Shown piece after piece: positions 3,801 to 48,999 of a stretch of 64,000 nt of DNA. The notes under the pieces were generated by a model. That model saw only the letters and a list, made by a program, of their open reading frames with translations. It was not told where the DNA came from and did no database searches. Positions within the stretch are counted from its first letter, which is position 1, and each line of letters opens with the position of its first letter. The stretch spans positions 744,001 to 808,000 of the forward strand of contig JAYWIR010000028.1 in assembly GCA_036172245.1 (NCBI GenBank), written 5' to 3'. Both the position numbers and the translations under genes were made by a program. This DNA comes from Raillietiella orientalis. Its lineage: Eukaryota.

Positions 3801-4068
3801 GCAAACGTTCCCAGCTTATAGGTATCTATGGAAGGGAACGCTTTTCAAGGTATTTTGGGTTTTGTCGTTCTCCTGGAAACTGGAGCTGAAAACACCGCTG
3901 GAAGAGATCGCAGTGGCCAATCGTGAATACCGATATTACCTTTCCTTCGCATGGTGCACACAAGATCAAACGCTCAGCATCACCCTAGCTTTTCAGTAAA
4001 GTGTATCACGTTATTATTCAGACATGACCTGCCAACTCCAAGCGGTAGACACCACTCAGTCGCGTAGG

Positions 4069-7000
4069 TTACAACTGCACGTGCTTGTTAATCTTGAGAG
4101 TGAGGTTTCCCATACCACCTAAGCCACTCAGAATCCCGAATGGCTTGATGAAACCTGAGGATTCTATGGTGGCGTTCAAGGAAATGTCCTTTTTCGGTAC
4201 TTGGGTGGAGCTCGCGGTTTCATCGGTGGGTTCCGTAGGAGGTGTTTCGGTGTCATCGGTGGGTTCCGTAGGAGGTGTTTCGGTGTCATCGGTGGGTTCC
4301 GTAGGAGGTGTTTCGGTGTCATCCGTGGGTTCCGTAGGAGGTGTTTCGGTGTCATCGGTGGGTTCCGTAGGAGGTGTTTCGGTGTCATCGGTGGGTTCCG
4401 TAGGAGGTGTTTCGGTGTCATCGGTGGGTTCCGTAGGAGGTGTTTCGGTGTCATCGGTGGGTTCCGTAGGAGGTGTTTCGGTGTCATCGGTGGGTACCGT
4501 AGGAGGTGTTTCGGTGTCATCGGTGGGTTCCGTAGGAGGTGTTTCGGTGTCATCGGTGGGTTTCGTGGGAGGAGTTACCGTTGGACATTCAGTTGGCGAG
4601 GTATCGTCCGTGGGTTTCGTGGGATGTGTTCCCGGAGTCGACTTCGTGGGCGGAGTTACCGTTGGACATTCAGTTGGTGAGGTATCGTCCGTGGGTTTCG
4701 TGGGATGTGTTCCCGGAGTCGACTTCGTGGGCGGAGTTACCGTTGGACATTCAGTTGGCGAGGTATCGTCCGTGGGTTTCGTGGGATGTGTTCCCGGAGT
4801 CGACTTCGTGGGCGGAGTTACCGTTGGACATTCAGTTGGCGAGGTATCGTCCGTGGGTTTCGTGGGATGTGTTCCCGGAGTCGACTTCGTGGGCGGAGTT
4901 ACCGTTGGACATTCAGTTGGCGAGGTATCGTCCGTGGGTTTCGTGGGATGTGTTCCCGGAGTCGACTTCGTGGGCGGAGTTACCGTTGGACATTCAGTTG
5001 GCGAGGTATCGTCCGTGGGTTTCGTGGGATGTGTTCCCGGAGTCGACTTCGTGGGCGGAGTTACCGTTGGACATTCAGTTGGCGAGGTATCGTCCGTGGG
5101 TTTCGTAGGAGGTGTTCCGGGAGTCGGTTTCGTGGGAGGTGTTCCGGGAGTCGGTTTCGTGGGAGGTGTTCCGGGAGTCGGTTTCGTGGGAGGAGTTCCG
5201 GGAGTCGGTTTCGTGGGAGGAGTTCCGGGAGTCGGTTTCGTGGGAGGAGTTCCGGGAGTCGGTTTCGTGGGAGGTGTTCCCGGAGTCGGTTTCGTGGGAG
5301 GTGTTCCCGGAGTCGGCTTCGTGGGAGGTGTTCCCGGAGTCGGCTTCGTGGGAGGTGTTCCGGGAGTCGGTTTCGTGGGAGGAGTTCCGGGAGTCGGTTT
5401 CGTGGGAGGTGTTCCGGGAGTCGGTTTCGTGGGAGGAGTTCCGGGAGTCGGTTTCGTGGGAGGTGTTCCCGGAGTCGGTTTCGTGGGAGGTGTTCCCGGA
5501 GTCGGCTTCGTGGGAGGTGTTCCCGGAGTCGGCTTCGTGGGAGGTGTTCCGGGAGTCGGTTTCGTGGGAGGAGTTCCGGGAGTCGGTTTCGTGGGAGGTG
5601 TTCCGGGAGTCGGTTTCGTGGGAGGAGTTCCGGGAGTCGGTTTCGTGGGAGGTGTTCCCGGAGTCGGTTTCGTGGGAGGTGTTCCCGGAGTCGGCTTCGT
5701 GGGAGGTGTTCCCGGAGTCGGCTTCGTGGGAGGTGTTCCGGGAGTCGGTTTCGTGGGAGGAGTTCCGGGAGTCGGCTTCGTGGGAGGTGTTCCCGGAGTC
5801 GGCTTCGTGGGAGGCGTTCCCGGAGTCGGTTTCGTAGGAGGAGTTACCGTTGGACATTCAGTTGACGTGGTTTCGTCCGTGGGTTTCGTGGGAGGTGTTC
5901 CCGGAGTCGGCTTCGTGGGAGGCGTTCCCGGAGTCGGTTTCGTAGGAGGAGTTACCGTTGGACATTCAGTTGACGTGGTTTCGTCCGTGGGTTTCGTGGG
6001 AGGTGTTCCCGGAGTCGGCTTCGTGGGAGGCGTTCCCGGAGTCGGTTTCGTAGGAGGAGTTACCGTTGGACATTCAGTTGACGTGGTTTCGTCCGTGGGT
6101 TTCGTGGGAGGTGTTCCCGGAGTCGGCTTCGTGGGAGGTGTTCCCGAAGTCGACTCCGTGGGAGTTATGGTTGGACATTCTGTCGAAGTGGTTTCTGAGG
6201 ATTCTGTGGGAGAGCTTGAAGATGGCTGCGTGGTGCTTTTTTGCGGCGTCGTGCATGGGTGTTTTATGCAAAAAATCTTTTTGCCTATTTCTATGGAGGT
6301 GTTTAGCAGTTTGGTTATTCCAGGAATTATTCTTTTTGTGCTGCTGATTTCCACGTTGAGGATTCCTGTGAGGCTCCTTAGGGCTTTGTTGTACCAAACA
6401 GTTTTAAATTTCTTGTTTAGTGTGTGCTTTATATCTCGTAGGAGTGCAGTGAGGGACGATGATGTGATCTGAGCTTGTTTCCCGATGTCCCGATTTATGG
6501 ATTCCACGGATGTGATCAAAGGTCTTAGGTGCTGGAGGTACTGACTCTGCTCTCCGGTAGGTTTGGATGTTCCGCGTGGGCAGTCAAATTGGTAAGGCGA
6601 CCTGCAAACTCTCAAATCCTTGTCGAAATTTAGGTCAAGTGGACAACTAAAGTTGTATTTTTTTTCTCCGTAGCATTGGTAGAAGGTTTTGCAATCTTCG
6701 TGAACCCTTGAAAACTGAATGGTTTCTTCCTTGCTGCACTGGGTATTGCGTTTCTTCCGTACTCCTTCTTGAGGATACCTGAAAGTCAAAGAGAGCTCTT
6801 AATTCGAAGACATTTCAGAGAAAGTTCGCAGCGGAAGCTGCGTGACTGCCAATCTTATGGTTGTTCCACTTCCTTTCTATTGCTCCAATACATTTTCTGA
6901 CAAGACCCTTATCCATTTCTACTTTTCTTGCTGTCTCCATTGCTGGCTGCTTACGGAGCTCCTCTTTATTCTTTGATCATTGATCGCATACCTTCAAAGA

Positions 7001-8714
7001 TTTTGAGGAACCGCAAATTGGGATCGGTTGGATGCAGCTGGCAGGAAGAAATCGGAACTGTCGGTGGAGGGGCGCAATTCGCCCATTTGGCTCGCTGATG
7101 CTTCGAAAATCCATGCCTTCAAAGAGGAACTGCATCCGTGGCTCGTCTGAGGTCTGAGGCAGGAGCTGCTGGGCAAAAAGAGAAAACGCAAAAGATGCCC
7201 ATCACAAGCACGTGAACGAGGAAGATTAAATTGAAGGTCTCTTGCGCCGGCATGGCATTGAACTTTTATGTGACTCAGGACTGGTTAGAACGAGTGATTG
7301 GTCACTTTGATCGATCATTCTGCGCTCACAGGTCGCTGCTTATGTTTCCTGAGCAATCCAAATCTTTCAGAACAGAGGCATTGCCTGTGGGAATGGTTTC
7401 CTTCCTTTTCACTGCCGCTCAGTGGATGCTTCACGGACCTTTCACTCACACACCACCTTTTTTTTGTCAGAAAAGGATCAGAGCGCGGAAGAAGATGTTT
7501 TTTTCTCCCAGAGCTGCTACCAGAAAACGATCGCAACTTCCGGCTGTGAGCCAAGCTCAAGGGGCGAGTTCTAGGACTCGTAGAGGGAACGCCCTCGCCG
7601 AAGGGGTATTTTGCAAGGGCCGCAGTAGCTGCCTTCCTACCTCTTTTGTTCCACGGAACACAGAGTTTCCTCGGCATCTTTACAGGTCGAGGATCTGACG
7701 TCGAACAGTTTGAGCGACGGGCACACGAACCGCGACGCCCTGCCATCTCGACAGGCGTAGAATTCTGCGCACGACTCGAGGCTCGGGACGAAGGTGGGCT
7801 CGGTGCTCCGGTATTGCGAGCATGTCTCGTAGATGTGTGGGTCAATGCCGCGCTCCTTCTGGGAGCTGGCTTCACCCTCTTTCAAGGGCGATTCCCGATG
7901 CCTGAGGTCCTTTTCTGCATTGAGAGTAAGCACTGACGAAAATGCGGCTGCGAAGAGCGCTGCATATGTGAGGATTCTGGAAAGCACAAACGTCAAGGGA
8001 CACGAGCGCCTGACCACCTCTGCGGGTGAATCGCGGGTGCTCGTACGGAGAACTACATTACAATCCATCGCCCTTTGTGTAAGGGAGCGCCTTTGCAGCT
8101 CCATCTCTTCAGGGAGACACACTGTCTTGACCGATGCTTGCAATACTCATCTGTCTGAATTTTCACGTTACTCCCCCCCACCTCCCCACCGGGACACCAA
8201 CACGCACCCTCGTTATGAGGCAGCTGTGCTTCCGCTTGTTTGGACTTTGGCAGCGAAACGACCGCCCTGTACCAACTCATTAGGCATACCGAACGCTTTT
8301 CACTTTATCCTTTTTGTAGCGAATTTGTGGCAGATCAGAGGTCACACCTTCATTCCGTTTCTTTATGAAACTATCTCGGATGTGTGTGTCCCTCCACCAC
8401 TCTGGACCCGAGCTCTAATAAAACACCGGAGAGCTACACGCAAATCCTCGATGCCAGCAAAGTGGCTGCTACTTAAGAGAATGTAGCAGCTCTCCCGGCC
8501 GGGCACGTACGTGTCATGACCGATCAATAAAAATACCATTTCCGAAAATACCTTTGGTTAAGTGGCAGCTAATTAGAAAATCGGGCTCTTTTGTTTTCGA
8601 ATTAACTGCTGTCCGATCCGGGAACTTGATTCAAGAATCAATTACAATTCGGAGCTCAATTATTAGTCACGAACTGCTTACTAATCAAAGGGAATGCTTA
8701 GACTCTTACCCCAT
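4069..8714 (-). CDS. Secreted chitin-binding (2x peritrophin-A/CBM14) mucin-like repeat protein, paralogue A (~1016 aa, 3 coding exons)
   Basis: Exons 8714-8710 (ATG GG|GTAAGA), 7976-7641 (TTTCCAG| ... AAGAG|GTAGG) and 6778-4069 (TTTCAG| ... TAA). Both introns are phase 2 and the total of 3051 nt is in frame. The spliced N-terminus MGILTYAALFAAAFSSVLTLNA looks like a signal peptide. Two canonical 6-Cys CBM14 domains (CSQY..CAEFYAC..CPSLKLFD..C..C; CSKE..CKTFYQC..CPLDLNFD..C..C) precede a helical region, ~680 aa of Pro/Thr repeats and a non-repetitive C-terminus. Exon 1 is less certain than exons 2-3. Confidence 0.88.
4210..6200 (-). repeat. Coding tandem repeat array in paralogue A (27-, 81-, 108- and 33-nt units)
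   Basis: About 27 copies of a 27-nt unit (PPTKPTPGT) at ~5100-5835; 7 copies of an 81-nt unit containing TECPT (anchors at 4583, 4664 ... 5069); 108-nt units (anchors 5852, 5960); about 10 copies of a 33-nt unit (PPTEPTDDTET) at ~4215-4560. Confidence 0.95.
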
Positions 8715-9699
8715 ATAACAGGATTGGAAGGCCAAAAGTTCGGGACAACTCGGCAAGCAATACTGTTTTAGCTGCCACACCAGTGCTCACTGGCTCCTCG
8801 TTGGTTCTTGTGAAGACAGGTGACTGTGCCTTTGAACTTTACGGGATTTTTCTTCAAATCACGGATTCGGGAAAGGTAACTGAACGCTGCTTCATCCCAG
8901 TCAAGAAGCGAAAAGTAAAAGAACGCGCCTTTTTTTCCCGTTAAGTTGGCATTTCCTTCGCAAGTAACGAAAATTCTTCCTCGTGTGATTCTTCCGCACC
9001 CATATGGCACTCTGAGAGTCAGAGACAGGGAAACTTCCGCATGCGGTGGGGAGTCGATTAAGCCGAGGTGGAGCACGAAGAGGAAGAAGAAGGGGGAAAA
9101 AAAAACGGAGAGTGACACCGTCAGTCTGAACGAGAAGCGTCCGTTTCTTTAGCTGTTCTCCTATTTCGGAGTTTTTCGCACCAACTGGCCGAGTTGTTTG
9201 CAAATCAGCGCCGAGAAAGTGAATTTCGCTTTCAGAAGGTGAGGGAAAATTCATGCATCTCGAAGAACGTGGGGTAACCTCATGGAGAGGAGAAAAAAAA
9301 AAAAAAAAAAAAAAAAAACGGAAGCATCGAAATCTCAAAGCTCATCGAGCAAGGTCGTCGATGGGTCACGCCGTATGGGGAAAAGGGGAAAGTATCAAAG
9401 GACTGCACAAAAGGAAATCTGCTGCCTCATCACCGTGCCACTGATCTCAGCTGGAATGCACTTTGACGAAAAGGAATGGAGCATTCCAGGATGCCTCGAG
9501 AGGCGCATCATGGATGATCAGTGGGCTTCGTGCGTAATGAAGGATTAGGCCGAATGCAAATCGCTCCAGAAAGCGGCACTGGACGTCGCAACGGCACAGC
9601 TCCGATTCCGGAAGCATCGGAAACCTCGCGAGATAAGGATAACGATATCTGCACGTAAATCGGCATGTCTTGAACGATGCAAACCGACTGTTCCGTCAT

Positions 9700-12600
9700 A
9701 CAGGAATAAAAACACGCACTGAGGTCTTGAAGGTGCGTTTGCAACTCTGTCCTATAGGGACCAAGGAACAGCCAACAACGAGCAGCACTCTCAGTAGCGC
9801 TTGAGGTTCCGTACGCATGTACACGACGTCAAAAGCATAGGCGAGTGCTCAAAGAACTCACGCTGCAGAAGAACAAGACAGTTTCCCGGTATGCATAAAC
9901 CCAAGTCCTCCGAGACGCCAGATGATCGCCGTCCCTGGTGATTGGAGCCATGGAAAGATGCAAAAAGAAATCATGCCAGAAATTAGGCTCCGTCGCTTGT
10001 TTCCTTTCCAGGTGTACCAGATTATGGTACACCGCATCACGAATTTGGTTTCGTGAAGGGAAGCGGAGCAGGTTCCGGTTTCACGCTGAAAACAAGCCTG
10101 CTGGCCGAGGTGACACCCTCAAACATACTCCGCGGCATTCATATTTTCCAGAAAGTTCGAGAGAAAACTGGAATTTGCAGCGCGCCCAATTTCACGGACG
10201 AACGGAAGCGGAAAGAGATGCAGGCGCACCCGAACGCGCACATCTGCGCAAGAACGTACACAATGCACTTCTTATACACAATGTACAAATTCGAACAAGA
10301 GCATCTCGGAAAAAAAAAAAAAAAAAATGCTCAAGAATTGGATTCCTGGAGTTGAAAATGGATCAACCCATCCAGAAATCAGGAAGTCCAATGGAGAAAG
10401 CAAAACCTGTTGGGAGCAGGCAGGAGCACTGCTGTTGAAAAAGCAAAGGGACTTGAAGTTGAATGGGGCCCCTGAGGATGCTGGACAAGGACACCATAGA
10501 AAGTGTCGATCACCATAAAGAAAAACCGCGCTCAATTCATTGACCAATGAGGCAATTCGTCTTATGGTGTTCTTCGAGCATCGGACAACACTCGAAAGAT
10601 AAAGCCCGAATCGAATCTTCATCCATAGCACCCAACTTCTTTAACGCGAATTTGGGTTGTAGGCGTACCCATACCTACACAAACATCGTTGTTTTGATGA
10701 AGAAGGTCGAAGCTTCCCATTTCCTGCAACGTCATGTTCATCCGACACTTTCCTTAGCACCTCCGAGCTACATCGTATGTAATGGAATCTTGTGAGCACT
10801 AGCCAAATAACGTGAAAAAGAAAAGCACGGGACCTACCAGTGGCGATGAGGACAGCAGCGATCGGCACAAAGGGAATAAGAATGAATCCGGAAGAGTAGG
10901 TAGGATTTTCGTTCAAATTCAGTTAGGCCCATGAGTTACGTCATGCCGAATCATTGGGAGAATAGTTTTAGGATCTTTCGAAAAGTTGGAAAAGCAGAAG
11001 GAGCATTTTATGAGTTTGCCTGATCTCCTGAAAGTGAAAGGGATTGCTTTAAAAGCACTCGAAACTTCAGTTTCAGCACATATGGGCACATCTTCACGTC
11101 TTGAGATGGTGCATCAGCATTTATTAGATTACCAGCAGCCCTGGGCATCTGCTGCAGTTGCGTCGGATGCCAGGGGACCTAGCAACGAAGAATGAGAGCG
11201 GTGTACACGGTACACGATCAACGTTGCATCTCTCTATCGCACTATTGCGTCGCATTGGTTCCATCCATACCGGAAAGTTGCTTTCATTCAAGAGGCGAGG
11301 GGCTTCATTGGATTCGCACCCACTGAAAGTTCGTAAACCCACGAAAGCACAGGAAAACATAGTAACTTCGTTCTATGTGTCCGTATTCTTGGACGAAGGC
11401 GCATCTCAGACGAAGTTCTTGTGGAGCCCTCACTGCCCGTCAGGTTCCTCCGAGGTGCCTGCGGTTCCACTCCCCGATCACGAGAATGTAAAAGTGTACT
11501 CAGAGCTGTGTACACATCATCCGCCCAATCGATGGTTCGTCTTCGGATCGGGAACTGCTCACGCCACACAGTAAGCAGTGGCTCGATCGAGTACGGAGTT
11601 GTACATGAGTATTCTTTGATCCGTACAGGCTTTTAAAAGAGTTAAAGTGTGGCGCTTGCTGAAGTTTGGGATTTGTAGGTTCTTTCAGCGGGCACTTTTA
11701 TTTGAATATCCGAAAGCTCTCAAGGTAGACCTTCCGTCATGTATTAGTTGAACTCGTGGCGTAGTACACAAAAAAAAAAAAGACTTTTCTTTGCTCACGA
11801 TCTCTACAAACCGAAGAGGAAAACAGATTTCGATCAAGAGCATGAAGCATTGATGAATGTCAGTCGATATGTATGAACTCCGTGACGTGCAAAACTGCAA
11901 ATTGGCGTGAATTTTTGCAAACAGATCTCGAGTGCTGCAACTTCAGCCTCATCTGTGATGGAGATGTTCCACGTGTTGCGTCAGAGCACTCCTCGGCGGA
12001 TCTTCAGTATTCGCCATAGGAGGCGTTTCACGGGCTCCTGCTCCGATTATCTAAAGTGTCCTCAGGGTGACTTGGGTGACAGTGTTCATCTGTGGAAAAG
12101 CGAAAATAAAGGATTCGTGGAAAGGGACTTGCAAGCTGACAAATGTGGGTGTCAGGTCGGTCACCACAAATGACATTTCGTTCCACATGCTGATCCTCGC
12201 TCCTCCAAGTTTGCTTTTATTCAGCATCAGGTAGCAATCTTCTCTGTGAACTTGAGAGGGAGGTTTAGAAACCTCTCGCACGATTTAAAGCTACGAGCGT
12301 AACCAAGGAAACTGAGGCCGGATCTCCTCAGGAATCGTTGCTTGATCTTTCCTGTCGTTCCCGTATGCCTTCCTGCTGTCTGCCTTTTTGTTGGAAAATG
12401 GAAGTCACATGCAGTGAGATTTCAAATGATGCATTTTGAACATGTGCGCGTGATGCACGCGTGGAAAGGAAGGTACATATCACTTCGTGGCTGAAAAAAG
12501 TCCTGGCGAAAAGGGCTTTGATGAGGGAGAGAGGGAAGCAGGCTTGCGGACAGGTTTAACCCTTCTAGCCTAACTAACTTCAAGGTGCAAGAAGTTTCCA

Positions 12601-12750
12601 GTCTGCTCTTCCTCTTTTGCCTGTTATCCCAGTGTGGAACAGAGCCTCTGTGCCACCTGGAAATCAGCGATTGCTCCACCCGTTGCGATTCTGGACAGAG
12701 TTCGTCAAGCCCACACAAACGTGCACCAGATGAAGGCACTTTAACGAGTT
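9700..12750 (-). mobile_element. Degenerate hAT-superfamily transposase remnant
   Basis: Decayed motifs across several frames: ISTDIHQCFMLLIEICFPLRF (DESTD..L.I..R catalytic region), MKPLAS..ATFRY (K.L....TRW), then FW..G..LSCSSAA (dimerisation-domain LP.SSA..ER). Confidence 0.45.
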
Positions 12751-14829
12751 GACGATGCTGGTTGCGAAGTTACGGAGAAGAGAATTGCCGTTGTTCGTGG
12801 GAAGAAGACTCCGTTGGGTCTCAGCCGTGCTTGGGAAACTTTCCCCCGATTCCCCCTATCCATTCTCTGTCTTCAACCGGCCCCAGTGTTCTTGAAATAT
12901 CCCTTAGTGATTGCTTTTTACTCTTACAGCAACAGACTTGAAGCTTAGGAACGATGATGGGATTTTAAAAACTGAATCAAAAAAAAAAACAAATGGCGGA
13001 AAGCAGGAGACCTCGTCCTATTCCTGGGAAGTTGATCGATTATGAGTAAGTGGATCTCAGCTTCAGGGTTTATTCCGAAGAAGCAGCAGCTTCTCCCCTT
13101 CATCAGAAGAGCGTGAGAATGACGTGGCACCTATGAAGGATTTCTGTCGATTCGCAACACGTTCGAGGTTAAGAAGTTACCATTCCACTTTGCTCAATGT
13201 GTGCGGCGAGGATGTTCTGCACGTTCGAGATGACGTCATTCCAGAGGAGCGGTCCCCTCAAACGCTCCCGGGCTTAGAATGAATTTTCTTCGAGATCCCA
13301 ATGATAGAGTTGAGGCTTCCGCGAGAATTTAGGAGTTATTTTTATTGTGGGTTTCAAAAGAATCACATTCTGAGTGTGTGTGTGTGTGTTCTTTTTTTCT
13401 TCTTCTGATTTTCCTCTCAAACTCCTATTGGAAACGAGGTGCGAGCGATCTTCTACTTCGGATGCCAATCAAAGTCTGATGAGAAGATCATTCTCTTGAA
13501 ATTCCTGCGTTCCCAATCCTTCCACAAACCGGGAACGTATTTATCCTTTTCTTCGTTTCATTAATACGTACTCTCTGATGAACCTATCCAGGTTCGTCGT
13601 AAAAGTTCACGGTGAAACCCATGGTGTCTTTCGTTCAGCGCGCACACTTATTTTGAAGGTCAACGCTTTGATGCATCAGCCTGTAATGCTTTCCCCCCAA
13701 AGAGACCTCAGGTCGAATTTGGGTTTCGAAACGAAAACCTCTCTTCTGGTTGCCTTGCTCATGAACATCGAATCCGCATCCCAGACGAAGGTGGTCACTG
13801 CCTTCCGAAAGCTCCCTCTTCTTCTTCTAAGCATCTCCTTTAGTGGGTTTAGCCTCATCTTGTGAAATCTATAAAGTGGCTTCCATCTCTTCCACCAAGA
13901 ATCGTACTGATGCTGGTTAAATTTTTCGGACAGAAGGGCCATTTCTTTCCTCATTATGTCATTTCGGATAAGAATCTTCCTGCTCCTGCCTCGCCATTCC
14001 ATACATCGTCGTTGCCCTCCAGATTGACCCGACCTTTTTCCAAACAAACACTACTACTCTTGTCTCGTGGCTTCCGGTGCAGCCATCGCCATCGAATCAG
14101 CAGGAGATAACAAGTGTCTACTCTTCTCGTGAAAGGATCCTGGAATTGCCACAGACACAGATGTGCATCTCTGTAAGGGCACGCCGAATACGTGCCCGCT
14201 TCGTGCCTTTTATGGCGAATAGCATTTTAATCGCGTGAGGTTTGGTCCGCAAAGATTCGGGAGATTCGTGATGCAGACTTCCGGAGATCTGCCGAAAAGG
14301 AAGCGCTGCCATCATTCCGTGGCGAAAGCAGCATCTTCCTCCCGGATCGCAATGCAATGACATTTTTCGCGGGCTGCTTGCCTCGTGGAGGGAGGGCGGG
14401 GGATGTGGTGGTGCCTTTTTCATGTGGTGCCTTCTTTTGGAAAAATTGCTGCATCTGTGCGTAGAGAAACGGTTTCGCTTCCAGAATTCTGCTTCCAAGA
14501 GATAGAAAACAGACGGCACACCGAAACATCTTCGTTGCCACGCGATGCCGAAAAACCGTCCCTGCACCTCTCTCCTGGATTTCTCATCCTCATGGATCTT
14601 TTTTTGTCCGTCACGTGATTAACTCGAACTTCCATGGAGGTCAAGCAAATTCAGTCAGTCAAAGCTTTCTACTAACCAATTACTCGCTATTCTACTTCTA
14701 CGGGATAAAAAACTGCTCTCGGAGAACTTCATAAAGCAAACACTCTCGCGAGGAGATTTCGATGGGATACAAAAGGAGGGCTTCAAAATACAGAACACGG
14801 AAACACCGAGCGATGACGATCCCGAAGGA

Positions 14830-15090
14830 TTCTAAAAATAAACGCATGTACTTATTGGATATATTAATGCATATATTTATACATAGATTGATGTATGGAT
14901 TAATATTTTTTAATGGACATTATAATATATATATGCTTATTAAGTATACATATAAATTAATATGATTTATTTTAACATATATATTTATTAATATTCCTTA
15001 GCATGCATGTTATTAATATATTTTACACTATATTCATTACATATAAATGAATGTAAATTTGTATATAGATTATAAAAATTAATAAAGGAA
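14830..15090. other. Very AT-rich low-complexity island
   Basis: An abrupt ~260-nt stretch made almost entirely of A/T (TATA/ATAT runs) within sequence of otherwise balanced GC. Confidence 0.85.
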
Positions 15091-15099
15091 TTCTGATGG

Positions 15100-16880
15100 T
15101 TCAGGATTTACCGCAGAAAGGAAGTCCTCGAATCAGAAGACAACGGTAAACCTGAAGTTGGTGAAGTGACTTCTTACTCTGAAAAGGCGATTCTCCTGAA
15201 GAAGAAAGAAAGATGAAAAGTTACTTCCCATCCTCCTTCTGGAACTGGCCACTCGGACACCCCAGCATGGTCTCGTGAGAACCTGAGGAAATGAGTAAGC
15301 GAGACGCAAGGAAAGGGTTTGGAGGAAAGCGTGTGAGGTCATCTTGTGACCCGGAAGAGACTCCAGGAGGCGAGGTCTCAGGAGCAGCGTCTCTGCAGCA
15401 GCATTTAGAAGACTCCCCACAGACGATGCATGAATCCCCAGACTCCCTCTGGGAGTTTTCAGATTTGTCTTGAGGACTACCGATTTCTGCACTGAGAAAG
15501 GGTTTCGTCTGCAGCCAAGGAAAGTGATGCGGCTGCGCAGCAGTAGGCACCGCAGGCACTCTTAGACCGAGTGGTCGTTCCAACTGCTTCCAGTAACAGT
15601 CAGTTGTGTGAGTTCAGTCCCGCTTGTCCATTTCACATCCCTCTTTTGCCTCTTTCAGGAGGTTCAGGACGGGACGTCCGCGTTCCTCTGAGAGTCCAGA
15701 AGGACGGTTCGCAAACCTGCCAGGGCCACTACTCAGCCAGCAGAAGGCTTCTGGTTTCCGCCGACCACACTGGAAAATGCTCGTTTGGCGGCACCTGACG
15801 ACACAACCGTTTGTGGACGAAACCCATCTCTCTTCCAGGAGGAGCTTCTGTGAGCAGCTGCGAGCCCAAAGGGGATCGGCGAGAGGATGGCAAGCCAAGC
15901 CGTTTTTCCTCTTTTTTGTTCTCTGTAGAAGGAACCCAACAAAGAAATTCAAAGCCGTTGAATCTGATTCCTCTTGAATCATTAGTGCAGGAGCTACTAA
16001 TCAGAGGATGAGGTGCAGCGGAAGAAAAATCGGTATTTCCTTTACAAAGAGGGAAAATGCTTTGGAACGGAGGCTGGAGACGAGCACAGCCATACAGCCA
16101 ATAAAGAGGAATTTTCCTCCCTTGGGGAGGAAAGGGCGAGAGCGTTCTCTCGTGAGATCGGAAAGCGTGGGATCTCGAAAGAAGAATAAACGCGAGCAAA
16201 AGATTAATTTGAAAGCAAAAGGAACTCGTCAAATCGAGGTCTACTATCTCGAACACAGACGTGTGGATTCAGGATCGACCACGAGAGGCTCCCTAATCCC
16301 TGGGGAATGATAGTTCCGAACTCGAAGCACCGACTATGGAAGGAGCCGGTGCGCTCCTTATGTGGGTGTTGATCCGTGCGCGTGCAGGAACCGGAAGGAA
16401 CCTAAGGAAGCGAACCCCAGCTCAGCGTGGCTTTCTAGAAAGCCTCCTCAGCTGGACCCAGATGGAGCCTCTCCCAGACGCGGGGACCGATGCCATTCGC
16501 TTACTTTTTTTCAACATACGTACCGCAACATGCGAGGCGGTCCGCGGCCATCAGAGCACGGTCCAACCTGAGTCATCTCTGCATTCCGTCAGTCTCGAAG
16601 AAAGTGCTTCCCCTGAAAGAGTCCAAATCACAGGAAACCGAACTCCTAGGAGACGATGATTTTCTGTGCGCTTGGCTTCCGGACCATGGCCGCCTTTCCC
16701 TTCTTCCGAGGTTTGGCGGAGAACCTTGAAGAGCTAAGGTGGAATCGTAAGAAGATTTCGGGATTTCTCCCAGAGATCACTGCATATCATTTCGGCATTT
16801 TTGAAGCGCCCGAACTTTATCAGCAGCGTCCCATGCTGCTGTGCACTACTTTCTCTCTGGTCCATTTCACCCTAGAATAA
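15100..16880 (+). mobile_element. Degenerate Bel/Pao LTR-retrotransposon pol remnant (RNase H to integrase)
   Basis: IPRLPL (IPRLEL), VWRHLTTQPFVDETHLSSR (WRHV....NPAD..SRG), C.CR..K...P followed by PLPDAGTDA (PF...G.D), and PFFRGLAENL (PWWGG.WERL), in the expected order. Confidence 0.45.
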
Positions 16881-16942
16881 CTGCTGTTGTCCTTGATGCA
16901 AAACAAAAACAAACATCAAAGGAGGACCAGTAAAACTATCCA

Positions 16943-19900
16943 TCATATTTTCACACGCTTGTTGAATGCCAAGGTGAAATTACCGCCGCCTCCTAGGGAA
17001 TTCATAAAACCGAACGGTCTGAAAAAACCGATGCTTTTTATCGTGACGTTGAGATCCACATCATGACCAGGTTTGGTCGTGGTGGTTTTGCAATTATTTG
17101 TGATTATCGTTCCGTCAGATTCTGTTTTTGAGGTGCATCCCGGACCTTCGCTGGTCCACTCGGGTTCCGTGGTCCACTCGGGTTCCGTGGTCCACTCGGG
17201 TTCCGTGGTCCACTCGGGTTCCGTGGTCCACTCGGGTTCCGTGGTCCACTCGGGTTCCGTGGTCCACTCGGGTTCCGTGGTCCACTCCGGTTCCGTGGTC
17301 CACTCTGGTTCCGTGGTCCACTCGGGTTCCGTGGTCCACTCCGGTTCCGTGGTCCACTCCGGTTCCGTGGTCCACTCCGGTTCCGTGGTCCACTCAGACT
17401 CCGTGGTCCACTCAGACTCCGTGGTCTCTGTTGTTTCTTCTGTCTCCGTTGTCATGGAGGTTTCATTTCCTGGAATCTGCGTTGTTTTCGTTTGATTCAT
17501 GGTTACAGGGGGTTTAGTAGTTGCAGGCCGTCTGGTAGTCACGCTCTCGTTCTTTTGTGAAGAGTACACAAACCAAGCGTCCAAACTGCTGTTAAGACGT
17601 ATCAGGAGCTGCTGAGCTGCCTGCAGCTGTGCTCTCAAAGTGTTCCTCAATCTCCAGGATATTCTTTCTCGCAGGGAATCCCTCATTACTTCCTTGATTG
17701 ATGCCCTTTTGATGTCTCTTATAACAGAGTCGAGGGCTTCTTCTGCAGCGCCAGTAGCTCCTTGAAGCTGTTCCCTGAGGACTTGGATGCGAGAAAGCAT
17801 CTTTCTTTTAAACAAGGGAGCTTTTCTAGAGCTGAAGTTCCCAGAGTCGTTTCTCAGTCTAAGGGCCACCGTGCACAGTTGGGCAGCCTCATCGAAGGAA
17901 AAAGGAGGAGGGCATTCGAATGCATACACTCTACCGCCGTGACACTGATAGAACACTCTAAGTTTATCAGGATCACCGTAGAAACGAGGGAGTTTATGTG
18001 ATGAGCACGTATGTTTTCCTTCTGCAGTAGAAACCGCTCTGGCTTTCCTAAATAACAAGACAAAATGAGCTCCTCAACAGTGATTCAAGATGTTCGAAAT
18101 GAATGCTAGAAGGTGATTTTTTTTTTTTTTTTTACATGTTTCCATGATGGTCCCCTTTGACCAGATCTCAATAGAAGACTTGTCTCAGTGCGTTTGTAGC
18201 AGCGACTATTCACAGCTTTTCAACAGCTGTTTCATAAGATCATGGGAGAGTGCAAACGACCCGCGTCCCTCAAGTGGTGGGTAAGAATGTAAAAGTGATA
18301 GAAAGGAAATCCTATTAAAGCGTGAAGGCTGGCAACGAACTGGACCGACGGACAGAACTGTCACAGTTTGGACGATACCCGCCGCAGATAGGATGTAAAC
18401 AAACCAGGGGTCATCATCTATAAAGTTAGTTCTGACGTAATCTGGCCACGCAAGAAGGTAGAAGAAGATGGAAAGAGAGCAAACCCGGAAAATTAGTCTT
18501 CCCGTTCAGCTTCCTGGGGATAAAAGAGTGAATCGGTAGGGATGGATATCCAATCCATCCAACCTTCTTAATTCGCGGAGTTTTTTCAAAAGTGTCGGCA
18601 TCCATAGAAGACAAATTTTGGAGTTCCAGGATAGTAGGAACATCATGGATTAACTCTTTGCGCACTGTAGATAACAGGAAGATTAAAGTTAAAATCCAGC
18701 ATACATTCAAATGTTCTTGCTTCTCATACATGTACTCCTCATACATTCTACTGAATGAAAATGATAATAATCATGTTTCCACATCTGCAAAATAATATTA
18801 TATTGTGTTCCCGTGATGGTTTATTCCTAGATGTTGGTGCCGATAGTTTACAATCGCATTGTAAGAAACGGACAAAATATTCTACGTTCCTTCCTTAGGC
18901 CGCAGATCACTACGGCAACAGAGTGTACGCTAATCCTGTTCTCTCTATCAGCAGCACGCCCAAGGGATAGAGCTCGTTTAAATCGCAATGCTGAGGTCCC
19001 GAATTCTAGGCGGACCGATTTGGAGCAGAGGTTCGCGTCACGGGACTATTTCTTCCACGAGGCGGTTTAGAAGAGACCCTTCCCCGTCCCTGCAGCTTAA
19101 GAGTACCTACTCTTAAGCTGTATAGCGAAGCGAGCAAATGGAAAGCCCTCGGAAACACTCCATCCGGCCCAATCTAAGACGGCGCCCTCCAAGAAACCAG
19201 AAGATTCGAAACCTTGCCACCAAGTATTTTTGGAGCACTGAATTCTCCTGTGCACGGAAGCGAGCATCATCATGATGCCTCCACAAAGTTCACCACCCAG
19301 CAGTTGGACAACTGACCCAGGAGTAACCGACTCACCTTTCAGGTGCGACGCATCCCGCCTTGGGATCCAGCTCGCAGACTTTTTTCTCGCGGTTGAAGTA
19401 CATGGGAGTGGGGCAGGTCAACAAGGAGAACTTCCCTCGGGAACACACCACGTACTCATTGCACAGAAGGTACTCGGACAGGATCTCGGGGTCGAACTCC
19501 GGACAATCTCCCTGGGAGTCTGGATGACCAGCCGATTGCGCTGACCCCGACTTCGCCTCTTGTTGACATGTCCTGTTACATTCTTCACTGAAGGAAAACT
19601 TACCGCTGGAAACCCGGATGGCTCCTAGGGCGCGTGATGGGATGAGCACGCTTATGGAAACCAGGAAAACGCAGCCGCACCTGAAACTACGACAAAAGAG
19701 GTCAGCAGAAGATTGCGAGAACGTTGGCTAGAGACAACTCCTTCTCAGAAGAAAACTACTTCAGTTCTCACAGAGGAAAAGAGAACAGAGTGGTTCGAAG
19801 TGGAATTTAGACTTTTGAAGGAAACTCTATCCCATTTCTACGGATTATTCTAGTCAGGGAGGCGCCTTTAGTGATGCTTTCCATCGCGTCACGGACGAAT

Positions 19901-20089
19901 GGAGTGAAAGTTTGTACTTGTAAAGGCTCGGGCACGGAAGAGATGCTCTTCCTTTTTGTAGGGTGGATGGAGATTTTGCTCGTTGATACGGATCGATGCC
20001 GGAAGAAGATTTCCGCATCCTTCTTTTGCATCCCACTTTAGAATCGCAAACGCTCACTTTCTGCATCCCTGTTTCTGAGAACGCTTCAT
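16943..20089 (-). CDS. Secreted chitin-binding (2x peritrophin-A/CBM14) repeat protein, paralogue B (~493 aa)
   Basis: Exons 19680-19336 (TTTCAG| ... GAAAG|GTGAG) and 18047-16943 (TATTTAG| ... TGA) have the same phase-2 junctions as paralogue A. Tentative first exon 20089-20058 (ATG AAG ... AGA AA|GTGAGC), total 1482 nt in frame. Hydrophobic leader CVFLVSISVLIPSRALG; 6-Cys CBM14 (CPEF..CNEYVVC..CPTPMYFN..C..C); a second 4-Cys CBM14-like domain; helical region; (WTTEPE)n; C-terminus homologous to paralogue A. Confidence 0.85.
17152..17422 (-). repeat. 18-nt coding tandem repeat (WTTEPE-type, 15 units)
   Basis: GTCCACT recurs every 18 nt from 17154 to 17406 (15 copies), in frame in the 16943-18058 ORF. 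Confidence 0.95.
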
Positions 20090-38590: not shown

Positions 38591-41500
38591 TCAAGGGCGA
38601 TCATCTATGAAGTATTCTTCTTTCTTGCGGGAAGCCCTAGAGTCTCCCTGAAGTCTGTAGACTCCGACATTGGCCGAGGCCCTAACTTCCCCGTTGCTGT
38701 TGCTGGCGAGACAGATGTATGTTCCCGACATGCGCGGTTCCAAGCGCGTGATCTGGACCCATGAAGAAGTCATGTGCGATTCGGGACCTCCGCGATGCTG
38801 GACCGAGACGTGTGGGTAATCTCCTGAAAGGAAAAAGCGATAGAGGGCAGCATTGAATGACTCTATGCAGGGATGACCAGCTTGCCAGCAGCCGATCATT
38901 TACACCTTCCTTCTCCTTGCCTTCGTTCCCACTTTTTCCTCCTCACCTACTCTCCCTTGCTTCTTGAAATGCCTGAATGCAGTCCGACAGGGAAGGAAAA
39001 ACCTTCTCCACATGGCTGACAGATTTCAAATTTGCTCATGCTTTTTCTCTCCTGCTCCTGCCAGCTCATGGATTACCACTGACTTTGCTCTTCCGTGCTT
39101 GCTGTGGCTACCGATCGCGTGTTCTTTCACTTGCGAAGCTCCCTCACAAGAACGCACCCTCTCGAGAATCCCTCACACCATTGCCCCGCCACCCTGACCA
39201 CCTCAGCAGCGACAGCGTCGGAGCGATTCCGTTGAATCAGCATTAAAAAATTGCCGTCATATCCATCACCGTCACAGCATAAGCCGTCTTTGTGGCTATA
39301 CCACTGGTAGTGGCAGAGCAGGATGGTGGTGAAGATGCTCTCAATGGTGTCACGCGACTACTGGTGATATCAAAATGGCGTGATGACTATTCATATGAAT
39401 TCGAGCACTGTCGCGGATGGACTTGAGAATTCTCGAAGGAACAGAGTTTTCCGTGACTAGCAGCACTACGGAGGCAAATAAGATTGCTATTCCTTTAACC
39501 GGTGAGGGCATTGGAAACAGATCTTTGGAACTACCTCATAGGCGCATTAATTCGAGAAAGAATCACTGTCCAGTTGCTCAGGAAACACTGGAGGCAGGTC
39601 CAGCAGAAGAGAGGGTATGAAGCTGTTGCAGCAGCAAGAGCGAGTTTTCCCGCGCTTGCACTAGGAACGAATCTCGTCTCCTGAGAGCCAGAAAGAAGGT
39701 AACTGAGGCATCCGCGAAACGAATTCCAAGTTTTCGAGAAGAGCTAATCGGAAGAATAGGATGGCGGTCCGGGAAGACGGGTGAGAGGAATGGTATCCGG
39801 AAAAAGTTTCGGATGCACTAGACGAAATGCGCTTGGACGGTTGCATATGGGTGGACAGCAGAGAACGAAGCTTCTCTTATGGAAGTCACTCGAAGTTTCG
39901 AGAAGAAAAGAGAACTGGAATGAACTAGGTAGGAGCCGATTAGAACGTGAACGGCCTTGAACGCGTGAAAAATCCGAGACCCGTCGAAAAGAACGGGTCA
40001 CGCCCTAGCGCGGCCGTTGAAAAATTCGAAAAGCAACAACTACGACAGCAGCCGTTCTCGAATTTACCTGGAAGCTGAACTAATTCTCCATTCTCTTTGA
40101 TCAGTTCCCAAAAAATAACTGGGGTAGGATTCCCAACTGCTTCACAGGGGAGGCTGAAGTTGCCGTAGAATGGTTCGTATGTATCTTCAGGAGAAGTGAT
40201 GATCTTAGGCTCTGTTGGAAAGCTCATCAATCCCCCCCAAAATTGAGCTCAGTTCGAAGCAACGTACCACTTTTACAGGGTCCCCAATTATGAATTTGCG
40301 GATTCTTGTCACCTCTAAGAATAACCGCTTCTTTCCAAGCGCAAACTGTTGGGAACGTCTGATTGTCCATTCCGCAAACTTCGTATTTGTCCTTACAAGT
40401 GCAGTACGCTTCTGCAGGATCCTATTTAATGTATTCTGTTAGTTAATTGTGTTACATTTTGTGCTACAAGTGAAAAGGCCATCCAAGAGTTTTTTTTTTT
40501 TTTCTGTCTCTCTCTACGGGGATGGCAACACTGACACGGGCGTCCCAATTTAGATCAAGAATTATGCATCTTCCAAGAACGGTGGAGGAATGGGTGGGAA
40601 GGGTGTGGAAATTCGATAATGACCGAAAACAAACTTGAACTGGTAGGTTTTGCCTCTGTGCACCTAACCCCGCCTTCCCCCATCGCAGTGAGCAGGGAAA
40701 CACTTAAAGCGTACCCAGGCAGAGCAAGCGCGGTGTCAGCAGCTACCCAGACCTGACCAAACGCTGCAGCAGAACTTTGCTGCCGGCGGCCTCCCGCACC
40801 CCTTTCGCCCCCTGTCTTCTCAGACATCGACCGTTCCACAGCGGGGTCCCCGTGATTCTCACCAGGTGGAGCACGGAAGAAACGGTCGCAGGCACCGGAG
40901 AACCTCACCTCGAGACTCGGATGCTGCTGTTTCCGTCCCGTTCGAGATTTCACAAGCGGGGAAAAAAATAGAGGGCATGTTGCGAGCCTTTGGTCCGCAG
41001 CATGATTTTCAATTGGATTTTACGCCACGGGGTAGCTACGAGGCAGCTCCAGCGAGGACTGCAGCGACAGCAAAGTTGACAGGGAGGGAATGCTTTTTAT
41101 AGGACGGGAAAAATCGGCAACCACGCAGCACTCCTGGAATAAGAAAACCATCAGTAGAAAATTCAAGTTGCCGCTTCAAATAATTCCCATTCGGAATTGT
41201 GTGCAATTCGTGCAGGGTATGGCGTTTCGGATACCGGAAGCGCGATGCCCTGCCATACCTAAGAGCCAGAATGAAAACAGACACATCAGAGTTCAGGGCA
41301 CCATGGGAGAGGGAGCTCCCTAGCATTAACCTCGGATGACAAGGGAAGCAGAAGGGAAGATTTCGACCCTGTCCTCTCTGCCTTTCGTTCCCTAAGGCTG
41401 CCGCGAACGGAGGGAACGCGCACTCTGTTTACCGAGTGAGGCATCGCCGTACAACAAGCAGTTCCGCTCTATCGCAGCATCTGCATCCTCTGTCTCCATA

Positions 41501-44500
41501 GGCTGCTCGGTGTAAGGGTCGTAGGTTGGCGCACCCCGTAAGTATTCCCCCATGCGAGGCGCGCCAACTTGCCCACCTCACGTCATTCCCATCAGCCAAC
41601 AGCGACGCGAGCTTTCACGTTCGCGTCACGATAATTTATTCTGGCAAATTCCCTTCTAGAGGATTCTGGAACCTCAGTCGGCGAAAATTACAGCTTCCTG
41701 TGCAAAATTCGGAGGCGCTGCGCGGAGAAAAGCTGAGAAATGCGACGCGTCATCCGAATGCAATGTTTTCTTCGTCTGCCACATCCCTGCGAGATCCTTC
41801 CACCGTGCCAAAACGGGATGATTGCTTGTCGGCAGCTCGAAACGACGGGATGCTTCAAAGCGCTTTGATGATGCTCTTCTGGATGCATCATCTGCAGAAA
41901 TTGGAATAAACAAACCGAACGGCCATCGTGAGCACAGAGTCAGTCATCCACAAATGTATAGGTATTTATTTGTGCATGCGTATACGTGACGTGCCTAATT
42001 TTTCGATTGGAATTTTTCTTTCTTCATTACCATGTAGTGCTTCAACAAGGAGAGGTGCCACTGCACGTAGTGATTACGCGTGTTCTTCTAAGAATTGCCA
42101 ATAGTGTACCAAAAAATTCAGTTCACTTTAAGGTACAAGAGTTCGGGGAACTTGGACAAATGCCCTTCCTGCGGATCCTATCCTTCGAACCTACTTTTTG
42201 GTTACTTTGGCCATCCGCCTTAACCTCTCGGATGACGCAGCGGCTCCGTTGCACGAAACTGGATAACCTTGCTGTCGGCACTTTTTTGGTCACAACGGAC
42301 CTCAGGTAGCCCACAGCTGCTCTACAGTGTAACGTAGGCACTGTGCCTTCTAAGAGCCAGAATGAAAACGAAGACTCATCAGAGTTCAGGGCACCATGGG
42401 AGAGGGAGCTCGCTAGCATTAACCTCGGATGGCAAGGGAAGCAGAAGGGAAGATTTCGACCCTGTCCTCTCTGCCTTTCGTTCCCTAAGGCTGCCGCGAA
42501 CGGAGGGCAGCTTTCACCGTTTCTGGAACTCCTCCTTCAAGAACAGGAAGCAGGAATGTGATCCAAATGATGTTTCGAATGAATCGTGGGAGAACTCTTC
42601 CGTCCCCTTTCTTTCTGATAAATAGCTTGCTGCAGGGGCCTCACGAAGGGTGTGGGGTCGACTTTTCTCTTTCGCAAGTCTCGAACGAAGCTTCTCGCAG
42701 TTCGAGGATCTGAAATTCGCACACAGAGTCACACGTCGGTCAATCCTAGAGAAGTGACATGTCTGGTAGCCTTTGACACACCCGGAGTGTGCGGGGGCGC
42801 ACAGAGCCGGCTGAGACGGGAAACTGCTGAGCAAGGCCATCCTCGTGAGGCTCCGCAGCCAGGAAACGAAACTCTGTTGCTCTTCTGTTTATTTACGAAT
42901 ATGTGCTTTCACTTTGCTTGCAGCCAAAATATCCAAAAGGGAGATGGCAATCCGCCAAGACGTGGGAACTTCCGATGCACGCAACACATCGCCGGCGAAA
43001 GCATATCGCTATGAGCACCGACAGTTTGGCTTCCTTTATGAGCTTTATGAGCGGAACTTGGCGGGGATGCGCGAGTGAAGACGCAAAAAGATCCAGCGCC
43101 ACGGGATGGTCTTATCTCTCGAAGACACGGTATGCTTCCCTGAGCACGCCTTCGATTTGATGCCCTTAGATGTTTCTCCGTCGTCGCAAAGCGGGAAAAG
43201 GGCGAAGAGATTTGCGAAGGGAAACTCTCGCTCGTCACGTGGTAATCAAAGAGCGGTCTTCCGCTATCTGAAAGCACTAACAGCGAAGTCTTTTGCCTGA
43301 GAAGAATGCGCGAGCACCTTCGAGATCCTCAAGAAGGATGCAAAGAAGAGCGGAAGTGTTGGCAAAGTTCTCTCAAATGAAGGGCGGCGTAGCGTTCGAT
43401 TCACGGGGCAAGCAGCGAAAGATGGAAACACAGCAGAGAAGAAAGGATATCACAGCTAATTTTTCAGGGGAATTTTTCAAGGAATCGAGACTCCAAGTCC
43501 TTAAACTCATACCAAGGGTCAAAGGGAACGGAATCAGACCGGAGGAGGAGGAATTTACTGAGCTGCTTCGTGTGCAATCTTGAAACTTCCTCCTGTGAGC
43601 TGAAGCAGAGTATCTCAGAAACGCTGGGCAGGGGTTTCGAAGGCATTCCATTCAGTGGACGCTGCGCTGGACCACTGGAGCCTTGTCGACTTCGTCAGCG
43701 TTCTCGAACGTCGATTCCTAAGGAGCGAGAGAGCTTCTCACAGCTCGCAGGGGAACGGGCTACTTCTTGAATCGCCTCATTCAACCCGGGGACCACCGGC
43801 AATTTCGAGCGTACAGAACCCACAGAGCATACCTACGTGGTACGGGGGCAAGAAGAGCTCGCGGGCGAGGAAAGACCAAAGGGTCCTCGTAGGGCGGTTC
43901 GATTGCTCAGGGCGAAAGGGGCCGACTCCCGCTTCGTGCTGGCTGCTCCGGCTGCAGCAGAAGGTGCAAGCCTTTTCCTTGCGCGTTAGCGATAAATGAT
44001 TTCCGACGATTGTGGGCTCCGCGGTGAGCAGCCTGACCATCGGCGACTACACTTTGACCTTAGAACCAAAAGGCCGAGAAGCGATGAGCAGCCTGACCAT
44101 CGGCGAGAGGAGTAGAAACGGATACCGACGACGGGAACGACGAAACTCTCGCAGCCGAAGATCAGCTCTGGAAGATCCACAGCTGCACACCCGTGTCATG
44201 CACGCGGCGTGCATACGAAGCGCACACCTCTGAACGCTGGTCACAAGGTCCACCCGCGTGATGGCCGCGTCCCCTCCCGAGCTGTGAGATCACGGAGGCC
44301 GAGCTCCTGCGCACGGACCGTTTTCCTATGGAGAGAGCCGAGTCGATCTTCCCAAAACTTTCGACAAAGGGAAGGACGCTTTCGTAGAGGGGACCAATCA
44401 GTGATGATTTTCCAAGAGTCGGGCAGGCAGTCGGAAGCTGGGGCTCATCGCCAGCTGGCGCCTCCCCATAGGGTCTCCTGGATCCGCTGCGGGGATCGGA

Positions 44501-48153: not shown

Positions 48154-48999
48154 CCCGCTCGTCCGACCGCCGCTGCGCTTCTGCCTGGAAGCGCGCAGCT
48201 CCTCCGCTCCCGTGGTCTCGCACGGTGAGGAGGTTAAAAATAGTCGTCGCTTTCGCACGCGCCTCCGCCGCCATCTTGTTCTGTTGTCGCCACGGTTGCT
48301 GTTGGGGCTGCCGGCTCTGTCCTGGCTTCCTTCTCTTGTGACGTCGCTCTTTCTCTGTTTCCCCTCCTCCTCCTTCTGCCCACCTCCGGATGACGCGGAA
48401 AGGCAAGGAGAAGGGCAAGCCGAGGTGTGGGGGGGGGGGAGGGAGGGAGGGAGTGGAACCTTCCTTCCTCCTCATCTCGCTGCAGCATCTCTCTTTCCCG
48501 CCCTCCGAAGAGAGACTTCGTCCGAAAGACCCGCTTTCCAGCGCATGCTTCCTCCCTCCCTCCACCTCCTCCTTTCCCACCATTCGCCGCGCTGGGAGGG
48601 AGAGAGGACAATCGGCGAGAATTCTCGGAAGGGAACCTGGGACTCGTCCGTTACGGGGAAACTCCCCAAGAAGGGAGGAGATCGGGAGGAATCTCTCTCC
48701 CCAAGCCAGAGAGATTCCGGGAACCGACGCGGAGCGCATGAGAGCGGGCACTGGAAGAAAAGCTGCGAGCGGACTGCTTCCAAAGAGCAGGTCCGGAGGA
48801 CTCTCCCGTCTCCTCCACCAGATCTTAATTGGACAGATCCTCTTCCCTCCGGTCTTCTCCTCGCCCTTGCCATGGGAGGGCGTTTCTAGCAGAAAAAGTC
48901 GCTTTCCCCTTTTCCTTCGATTCCTTCTCCCCTGCCTGGACTCCTGACTTCCTTCCCGAAGAGACAGAGTTCTCCCGCCAACTGCCTCCTCCCCTCCTC

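Follow-up and report, generated by a model that had tools for sequence, protein, structure and literature searches.

Two tandem genes for CBM14-containing, mucin-type proteins with an orphan helical hairpin and a conserved 39-residue tail

The window analysed here, a stretch of 64,000 nucleotides (contig C28:744001-808000 of a 210-Mb assembly), carries on its minus strand two tandem genes, A and B, whose predicted products have in common the order signal peptide-like stretch, two CBM14 domains, two-helix hairpin, mucin-like repeat and 39-residue tail. Judged from their sequences, they belong to a real, lineage-restricted family in which the unexpected element is the tail, conserved beyond the chitin-binding domains. 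A and B look more like mucins coating the gut or the cuticle than like silk, and we consider it an even call that they are secreted proteins of the peritrophin or invertebrate intestinal mucin type that coat a chitin surface and are assembled through the tail. We propose that their origin lies in a single crustacean lineage, probably Pentastomida, where short proteins with two CBM14 domains and the hairpin gained a mucin stalk. Proteins combining CBM14 with a mucin domain are common; A and B add two modules without detectable relatives, and the tail appears to be under tighter selection than the chitin-binding domains.

Structure and relatives of genes A and B

Spliced in silico, each gene gives a single open frame of three exons, encoding 1016 residues in A and 493 in B, with two introns per gene that are all of the GT..AG type and all in phase 2 (Table 1). 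The splice models are sequence-based predictions with inferred first exons: start exons were sought as ATG-to-phase-2-donor stretches at most 1.5 kb upstream of each exon 2, the strongest nearby donors being taken, and the search returned two candidate start exons for A and, for B, two donors. A first-pass annotation of the window had claimed minus-strand genes with matching exon layout and phase-2 introns at these places; the in silico splicing agrees with it, and the domain order it gave is borne out by Pfam, by the repeat counts and by module comparison of the spliced frames. The N-terminal hydrophobic stretch reaches a KD11 maximum of 2.09 in A and 2.99 in B, a measure of hydropathy only that depends on the inferred start exons, and no membrane-length hydrophobic stretch follows it in either protein (19-residue windows, none above 1.01). 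An extra exon near 6990-7170 in gene A was rejected, as it would bring in an in-frame stop if entered in phase 2.

CBM14 is a chitin-binding domain, and cores of the Pro/Thr/Ser type are O-glycosylated and extended. A Pfam scan covering the non-repetitive parts of A and B, with the repeat cores left out, placed CBM_14 above the curated cut-off twice per gene, once in exon 2 and once where exon 3 begins (E 5e-8 and 4e-8 in A; 2e-7 and 1e-5 in B). The full six-cysteine ChtBD2 spacing, given as CX11-30CX5-6CX9-24CX12-17CX6-12C (PMC7379184), is present in three of the four domains, the exception being the second domain of B, which is still above the Pfam cut-off. Cys2 and Cys6 are lost jointly in three separate CBM14 domains of the family, namely the second of B, the first of gene C and the second of gene D (both described below). 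Such joint loss is as expected if the two cysteines form one disulfide, which we take to be their pairing in CBM14, in a folded, oxidised domain. Between A and B, 12 of 52 residues are identical in the first CBM14 and 15 of 53 in the second.

The repeats of the two genes are unrelated, as had been claimed, and the counted units are those named at first pass: 32 copies of PPTKPTPGT, 11 of TECPT and 8 of PPTEPTDDTET in A, and 13 of WTTEPE in B, in strongly homogenised arrays (4215-6164 and 17152-17426, respectively) with a unit match of 83-98%. Pro, Thr and Ser together make up 71% of the core in A (685 residues), 49% in B (158 residues) and 87% in C, Gly and Ala together 5.8%, 3.2% and 0.2%, and Tyr is absent from all three; a composition check of these cores found no Gly/Ala-rich, Gly-X-Y or Tyr-rich motifs. 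By composition the repeats are of the Pro/Thr/Ser/Glu mucin type, not of the fibroin type. A contains 25 cysteines in total, an odd number, so that at least one would be unpaired and disulfide cross-links between chains would be possible.

Long antisense frames without stops run across both repeats (4049-6472 and 17067-17495, plus strand), that of A consisting of elastin-like GVPGVG units. They are expected, as the repeats are poor in Tyr, His and Gln codons, and we rejected them as true genes because the sense frame carries CBM14 together with the tail common to A and B. As happened with ASG1/ASG2, the former taken up below, such frames can mislead an annotator into calling a silk-like gene.

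The tail is the best-conserved module of the two genes, with 21 of 39 residues identical (z = 16.7 against shuffles). In the final 42 codons 22 residues are identical, 15 of them encoded by differing codons, and the four-fold sites differ at 8 of 10 positions; since the silent sites are saturated while the protein tail has been kept, the tail is maintained by purifying selection and not by recent copying, and the conserved tail of the first-pass annotation holds. The flanks of A and B show no further DNA similarity, and no DNA motif is common to the flanks of A, B and C. Both tails lack cysteine and carry two N-x-T sequons in register (two or more sequons occur in 5% of shuffles of tail A); hydrophobic and polar residues alternate at both ends with the sequons on the polar side, and the most conserved stretch is a central F-x-x-P-F-G with a Gly-rich loop. 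Modelling weakly predicts an amphipathic beta-hairpin suited to oligomerisation.

A search for homologues of the tail in a word-indexed protein collection gave none among 180 candidates at E ≤ 10, the ESM Atlas contained nothing, the best PDB sequence match had E 0.36, and a fold search gave a single row at Z 2.0. Within the genome the tail was found in A and B only, from either query, and in none of the 5437 open reading frames of the fetched CBM14 loci. Degenerate tails in D and C were ruled out (z 1.2 and 0.0 for D, 0.2 and -0.6 for C, against the A/B tails).

The exon of A encoding CBM14 and the hairpin was searched against the assembly, the surroundings of all 49 genomic CBM14 matches were taken, and a profile of the hairpin was run on them. 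It picked out ten loci only, of which three carry a long tandem repeat (A, B and C) and two the 39-residue tail (A and B). A and B are indeed in tandem, as first annotated, but they are not an isolated pair, as there is a third tandem gene and seven further members lie elsewhere. Gene C (C28:733086-739790), about 5 kb past the left edge of the window, has the exon layout of A and B, two CBM14 domains, the hairpin and 213 copies of SSPSSPTV (about 5.3 kb of 24-bp units); its C-terminus, with three cysteines and a Trp-rich end, is unrelated to the A/B tail. Paralogue D (C28:458516-460465, about 290 kb away) combines two CBM14 domains and a hairpin, nearest in sequence to those of the members on contig C4, with a non-repetitive extension rich in Ser, Thr, Glu and Asn. 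The remaining six are short paralogues clustered on contig C4 (328-370 kb) that stop at most about 15 residues past the hairpin, without repeat or tail. As these six end so soon and the tail of C is unrelated, the hairpin is no terminus reserved for the repeat. The same region (C4:328000-373400) also contains a hairpin-less gene in which a Thr/Ala-rich repeat precedes the only CBM14.

A phase-2 donor follows the first CBM14 in all nine members in which that domain was found; for the tenth, no upstream CBM14 was present within 1.9 kb. The paralogues are very divergent, and none of the seven branches of their tree is well supported. Basic motifs lie between the two CBM14 domains (window 6748-6759 and about 18040-18050, minus strand): A has RKKR, D has RNRR, and in B an RKAR spans the splice. 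They could be proprotein-convertase sites releasing the first CBM14.

The helical segment of about 90 residues that had been reported as common to A and B is predicted to be a hairpin, but direct identity between the two amounts to only 9 of 80 residues (z 3.0), and the link becomes convincing only through the paralogues. An AlphaFold2 model built on a nine-sequence alignment predicts antiparallel helices at 65-110 and 116-162 of 165 residues (mean pLDDT 73), and the nine-member profile recovers D, which was absent from it, at E 1e-12, so that the module is real. Three of the six members on C4, as well as A, B, C and D, carry an N-x-S/T sequon near the end of helix 2. Fold searches matched the N-terminal part to CBM14 structures and the remainder to nothing but generic helical hairpins, the best match to the hairpin being a de novo designed helical protein (Z 11.0, root-mean-square deviation 3.8, 101 residues aligned) with many ties. 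One profile match among 1.84 billion representatives (E 3.5e-4) was rejected as spurious, a 2740-residue repeat protein covering half of the profile without CBM14 context. A word-indexed search of longer proteins scored none of 8000, which is weak evidence, the ESM Atlas gave no usable match, the best PDB sequence match had E 0.096, and no Pfam family was common to more than one of the nine members. As the collection contains no close relative of this animal (COI best match 73%), these blanks for hairpin and tail are weak proof of novelty. With that proviso, no convincing outside relatives of the modules outside CBM14 were found (profile, Atlas, Pfam, PDB) and the tail is under purifying selection; the CBM_14 matches, together with modules matching nothing known, support the first-pass view of a secreted, chitin-binding family with uncharacterised parts.

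Proposed assembly on a chitin surface and alternative explanations

In the mechanism we favour, the signal peptide would lead A and B into the endoplasmic reticulum, where the CBM14 disulfides would form, as the hydrophobic N-termini and the cysteine spacing suggest. The two CBM14 domains, as is known for the family, would fix the N-terminus to chitin fibrils of the peritrophic matrix or of a cuticular lining, and the helical hairpin, a predicted fold present in the short paralogues too, could act as a rigid spacer or a dimerisation arm. The Pro/Thr/Ser/Glu core, presumably O-glycosylated and extended, would make a brush that holds water and resists proteases, and the exact sequence of its repeats could turn over freely. 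The conserved tail, folded as a beta-hairpin whose one face is hydrophobic and whose other bears two N-glycans, would pair with other tails into a mesh; judging from the model, oligomerisation is probably through this tail, and the odd cysteine number of A would permit extra intermolecular disulfides. If the tail does polymerise chains, it would represent a new way, 39 residues long, of cross-linking mucin on chitin, independent of VWD and cystine-knot domains, and it might find application in hydrogel design; if A and B are midgut peritrophins with lineage-specific ends, they would be a modest addition to a known family.

Several points weigh against this reading. Gene C is a third tandem mucin gene without the A/B tail, which implies that the tail is dispensable for the mucin design as such. 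A midgut site of expression is part of the definition of peritrophic matrix proteins (PMPs; PMC7379184), and the descriptions examined contain no insect intestinal mucin with comparable end modules. The AlphaFold2 model of the tail, with strands at 4-14 and 31-41 and a long loop between them, was built on 2 sequences and is of low confidence, with a pLDDT of 62 and a pTM of 0.28.

With the same molecular design, A, B and C might instead act at the host interface of an endoparasitic pentastomid, as the protein framework of a coat that glands lay on the chitinous cuticle or of a sticky egg envelope, which we regard as rather unlikely. Just as tentatively, the CBM14 domains would then fasten the coat to the cuticle, while the glycosylated cores, which change fast, would shield the animal from host immunity or make its eggs adhere. 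In favour of this, the family is lineage-restricted with very divergent paralogues, and the mitochondrial data (COI matches, GC skew, gene order) are pentastomid-like.

These data come from two partial mitochondrial contigs of 9.2 and 9.1 kb (C282 and C285), with rearranged tRNAs and about 500 bp unassigned between tRNA-Leu and cox2; the assembly has 54 COX1 matches, a sign of many nuclear copies. The tRNA order, G-E-N-F-A-S1-nad3-R, differs from that described for Armillifer, a point against a pentastomid placement. The best COI matches are three pentastomids (Armillifer, Linguatula) at 72-73%, followed by insects at 68-71%, none of them a close match. At COI sites at least 90% conserved among the 116 other matches, 19 derived residues are shared with all three pentastomids, 11 agree with the insects where the pentastomids differ, and 19 are the sequence's own. 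This comparison, on which the placement rests as a single gene, was made without ostracod, remipede, branchiuran and mystacocarid sequences, and long-branch or compositional convergence could mimic the signal; a COI tree was set aside as placement evidence, as it held insects and pentastomids only and its grouping was forced. The mitochondrial base composition (A 36, C 29, G 7, T 28%) is similar to that of Armillifer agkistrodontis (34, 27, 7, 31%; PMC5266366), and the standard order of protein genes with extreme negative GC skew (here -0.62) has been reported for Pentastomida and not for Argulus (10.1101/2020.05.09.085712). tRNA-Leu(UAA) follows cox1, as seen at a relaxed tRNA threshold only, which is the pancrustacean state (PMC1590035). 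An extra non-coding mitochondrial region has also been reported for a remipede (PMC3041745), which counts against a pentastomid placement. On the whole, the mitochondrial sequences make it likely that the lineage is a pentastomid or a close relative.

Pentastomes have been reported to secrete surfactants that possibly aid immune evasion, but the secretion is described there as surfactant and not as mucin (PMC4681768). It would be a first for the molecular study of the pentastomid surface or egg coat if A, B and C were its constituents, as chitin-anchored mucin brushes polymerised by a new glycosylated beta-hairpin and a new helical hairpin, with cores swapped rapidly between paralogues at the host interface; we think this unlikely. 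If the animal is a pentastomid, the family offers concrete proteins to test as components of the coat of these lung parasites, which is poorly understood.

A further alternative takes A and B as ordinary monomeric peritrophin-mucins in which tail and hairpin are small binding or trafficking modules, for a partner protein, a glycan or the control of secretion, without self-assembly. Six of the ten paralogues stop just past the hairpin and two others have unrelated C-termini, so that the modules are not an obligatory pair, and the conserved centre of the tail with its Gly-rich loop could be a binding epitope. Yet a two-stranded sheet with one hydrophobic face, as in the tail model, is unlikely to be stable alone, and a long two-helix hairpin usually packs on a partner; we consider this alternative quite improbable.

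If the animal is a pentastomid, it belongs to a group that is not known to spin silk. Silk, glue or cement, with A and B as co-assembling subunits of a thread whose conserved termini steer the repetitive core as in spidroins, has very little chance of being right: it is favoured by the non-repetitive tail after homogenised, unrelated repeats, by the spare cysteines of A for cross-links and by mucin-like, chitin-binding proteins in the mucus web and cocoon of a fly (PMC13728221), which leave room for a role in secretions as far as composition goes, but it is opposed by the lack of Gly/Ala, Gly-X-Y or Tyr-rich motifs and of any spidroin, VWD or cystine-knot Pfam match in the non-repetitive parts, by the occurrence of the hairpin mostly in repeat-less proteins and by the precedent of ASG1.

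Further features of the window

Table 1. Features of genes A and B, with positions counted from the first letter of the window
Feature	Position	Strand	Description
Gene A inferred start exon	8710..8714	-	ATG + 2 nt (Met only plus two bases), donor GTAAGA, phase 2; alternative candidate at 8511-8539
Gene A exon 2	7641..7976	-	hydrophobic signal-peptide-like stretch, linker, CBM14 #1; phase-2 donor at end
Gene A CBM14 #1	7658..7822	-	Pfam PF01607, E 5.2e-8; six Cys, spacing 16-5-9-12-7
Gene A exon 3	4069..6778	-	CBM14 #2, hairpin, repeat, tail, stop
Gene A CBM14 #2	6580..6738	-	Pfam E 3.8e-8; six Cys, spacing 14-5-9-12-7; dibasic RKKR motif ahead of domain
Gene A orphan helical module	6262..6555	-	predicted antiparallel two-helix hairpin (46 + 47 residues); AlphaFold2, family alignment
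Gene A mucin-like core	4198..6252	-	685 residues, Thr 34%, Pro 33%, 11 Cys in TECPT units; basic to acidic towards C-terminus
Gene A conserved 39-residue tail	4072..4188	-	two N-x-T sequons, predicted beta-hairpin
Gene B inferred start exon	20058..20089	-	donor GTGAGC, phase 2; another in-frame ATG at 20104
Gene B exon 2	19336..19680	-	hydrophobic signal-peptide-like stretch, linker, CBM14 #1; phase-2 donor
Gene B CBM14 #1	19350-19505	-	Pfam E 2e-7; spacing 13-5-9-12-7
Gene B exon 3	16943..18047	-	CBM14 #2, hairpin, repeat, tail, stop
Gene B CBM14 #2	17849..18007	-	Pfam E 1e-5; four Cys, Cys2 and Cys6 both gone
Gene B orphan helical module	17567..17812	-	sequence comparison, family alignment
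Gene B mucin-like core	17075..17548	-	158 residues, Thr 34%, Glu 24%, 15 Trp; WTTEPE array at 17152-17426
Gene B conserved 39-residue tail	16946..17062	-	two N-x-T sequons, positions as in A

Elsewhere in the window, the minus-strand region 38594-48140 has an IGFBP-domain exon (47692-48201) and Ig-domain exons (39943-40248 and 38594-38899), which probably form one IGFBP-rP1/IGFBP7-like gene whose Kazal exon was not located; a near-identical segment of about 140 bp occurs twice in an intron of this gene (about 41290-41430 and 42380-42520, minus strand). A weak match to Bax inhibitor-1 (PF01027, E 0.004, below the cut-off) at 51444-51761 on the minus strand is probably an exon of a TMBIM gene.

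Comparison with known systems

In the literature searched, which covered journals outside subscription, we found no description of the architecture CBM14-hairpin-mucin-tail or of pentastomid coat proteins, and we found nothing bearing on A and B in PMC10355681, PMC5856267 and PMC12856591. Obstructor/CPAP3 proteins are likewise secreted CBM14 proteins of chitinous matrices, but they have three CBM14 domains and little else, with no hairpin and no mucin core, whereas A and B have two CBM14 domains per gene; genes assigned to Obstructor/CPAP3 by reading translations are separately present in this genome on contigs C2, C23 and C31. The short paralogues on C4 have the exon phases and the CBM14-hairpin exon in common with A and B and differ in ending after the hairpin, without repeat core or tail.

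The first-pass annotation had likened A and B to spidroins, fibroins and gel-forming mucins. Like spidroins and fibroins, A and B, though not C or the short paralogues, end in a conserved stretch free of repeats, which follows a homogenised tandem repeat that is not the same from one paralogue to the next. In contrast to those proteins, their repeats are poor in Gly and Ala, their chitin anchor is N-terminal and most members of the family are repeat-less; no Pfam family of spidroin or fibroin terminal domains was found at E ≤ 1 in the non-repetitive parts and no PDB sequence match below E 0.09. With the hairpin C-terminal in six repeat-less paralogues, the tail of C unrelated and no Gly/Ala crystal-forming motifs or spidroin domain, that likeness is not supported. 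Neither is the parallel with gel-forming mucins, as only CBM_14 passes the cut-off in the non-repetitive parts, which hold no VWD/C8/TIL or cystine-knot domain, and the tails are free of cysteine.

The closest documented architecture, by analogy, is that of the spider protein ASG1 ('aggregate spider glue 1'), which was first described as a glue and later reassigned to peritrophic mucin, being expressed more outside the silk glands (PMC4753498), and which is a cautionary precedent for a glue reading. Like A and B, ASG1 is multi-locus and combines ChtBD2 with a Glu/Thr/Pro repeat, and its antisense strand holds a Ser/Gly/Val-rich, silk-like frame (PMC4753498); unlike in A and B, a C-terminal ChtBD2 follows immediately after its mucin repeat, and we found no hairpin or tail of the A/B type described for it.

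With peritrophins and intestinal mucins, A and B have in common several ChtBD2 domains and a Thr/Ser/Pro-rich mucin domain (PMC7379184, PMC4753498, PMC9655413). The definition of that class includes a signal peptide, and A and B carry hydrophobic, signal-peptide-like N-termini as far as their inferred start exons go. They depart from the class in the orphan hairpin of about 95 residues after the second CBM14, in the orphan 39-residue tail and in having CBM14 domains only N-terminal of the core. Among the options of the first-pass annotation, a peritrophic gel fits the combination of CBM14 and mucin composition best: A and B bear the sequence hallmarks of peritrophins and intestinal mucins, a class membership that is one of sequence only, and would work like them.

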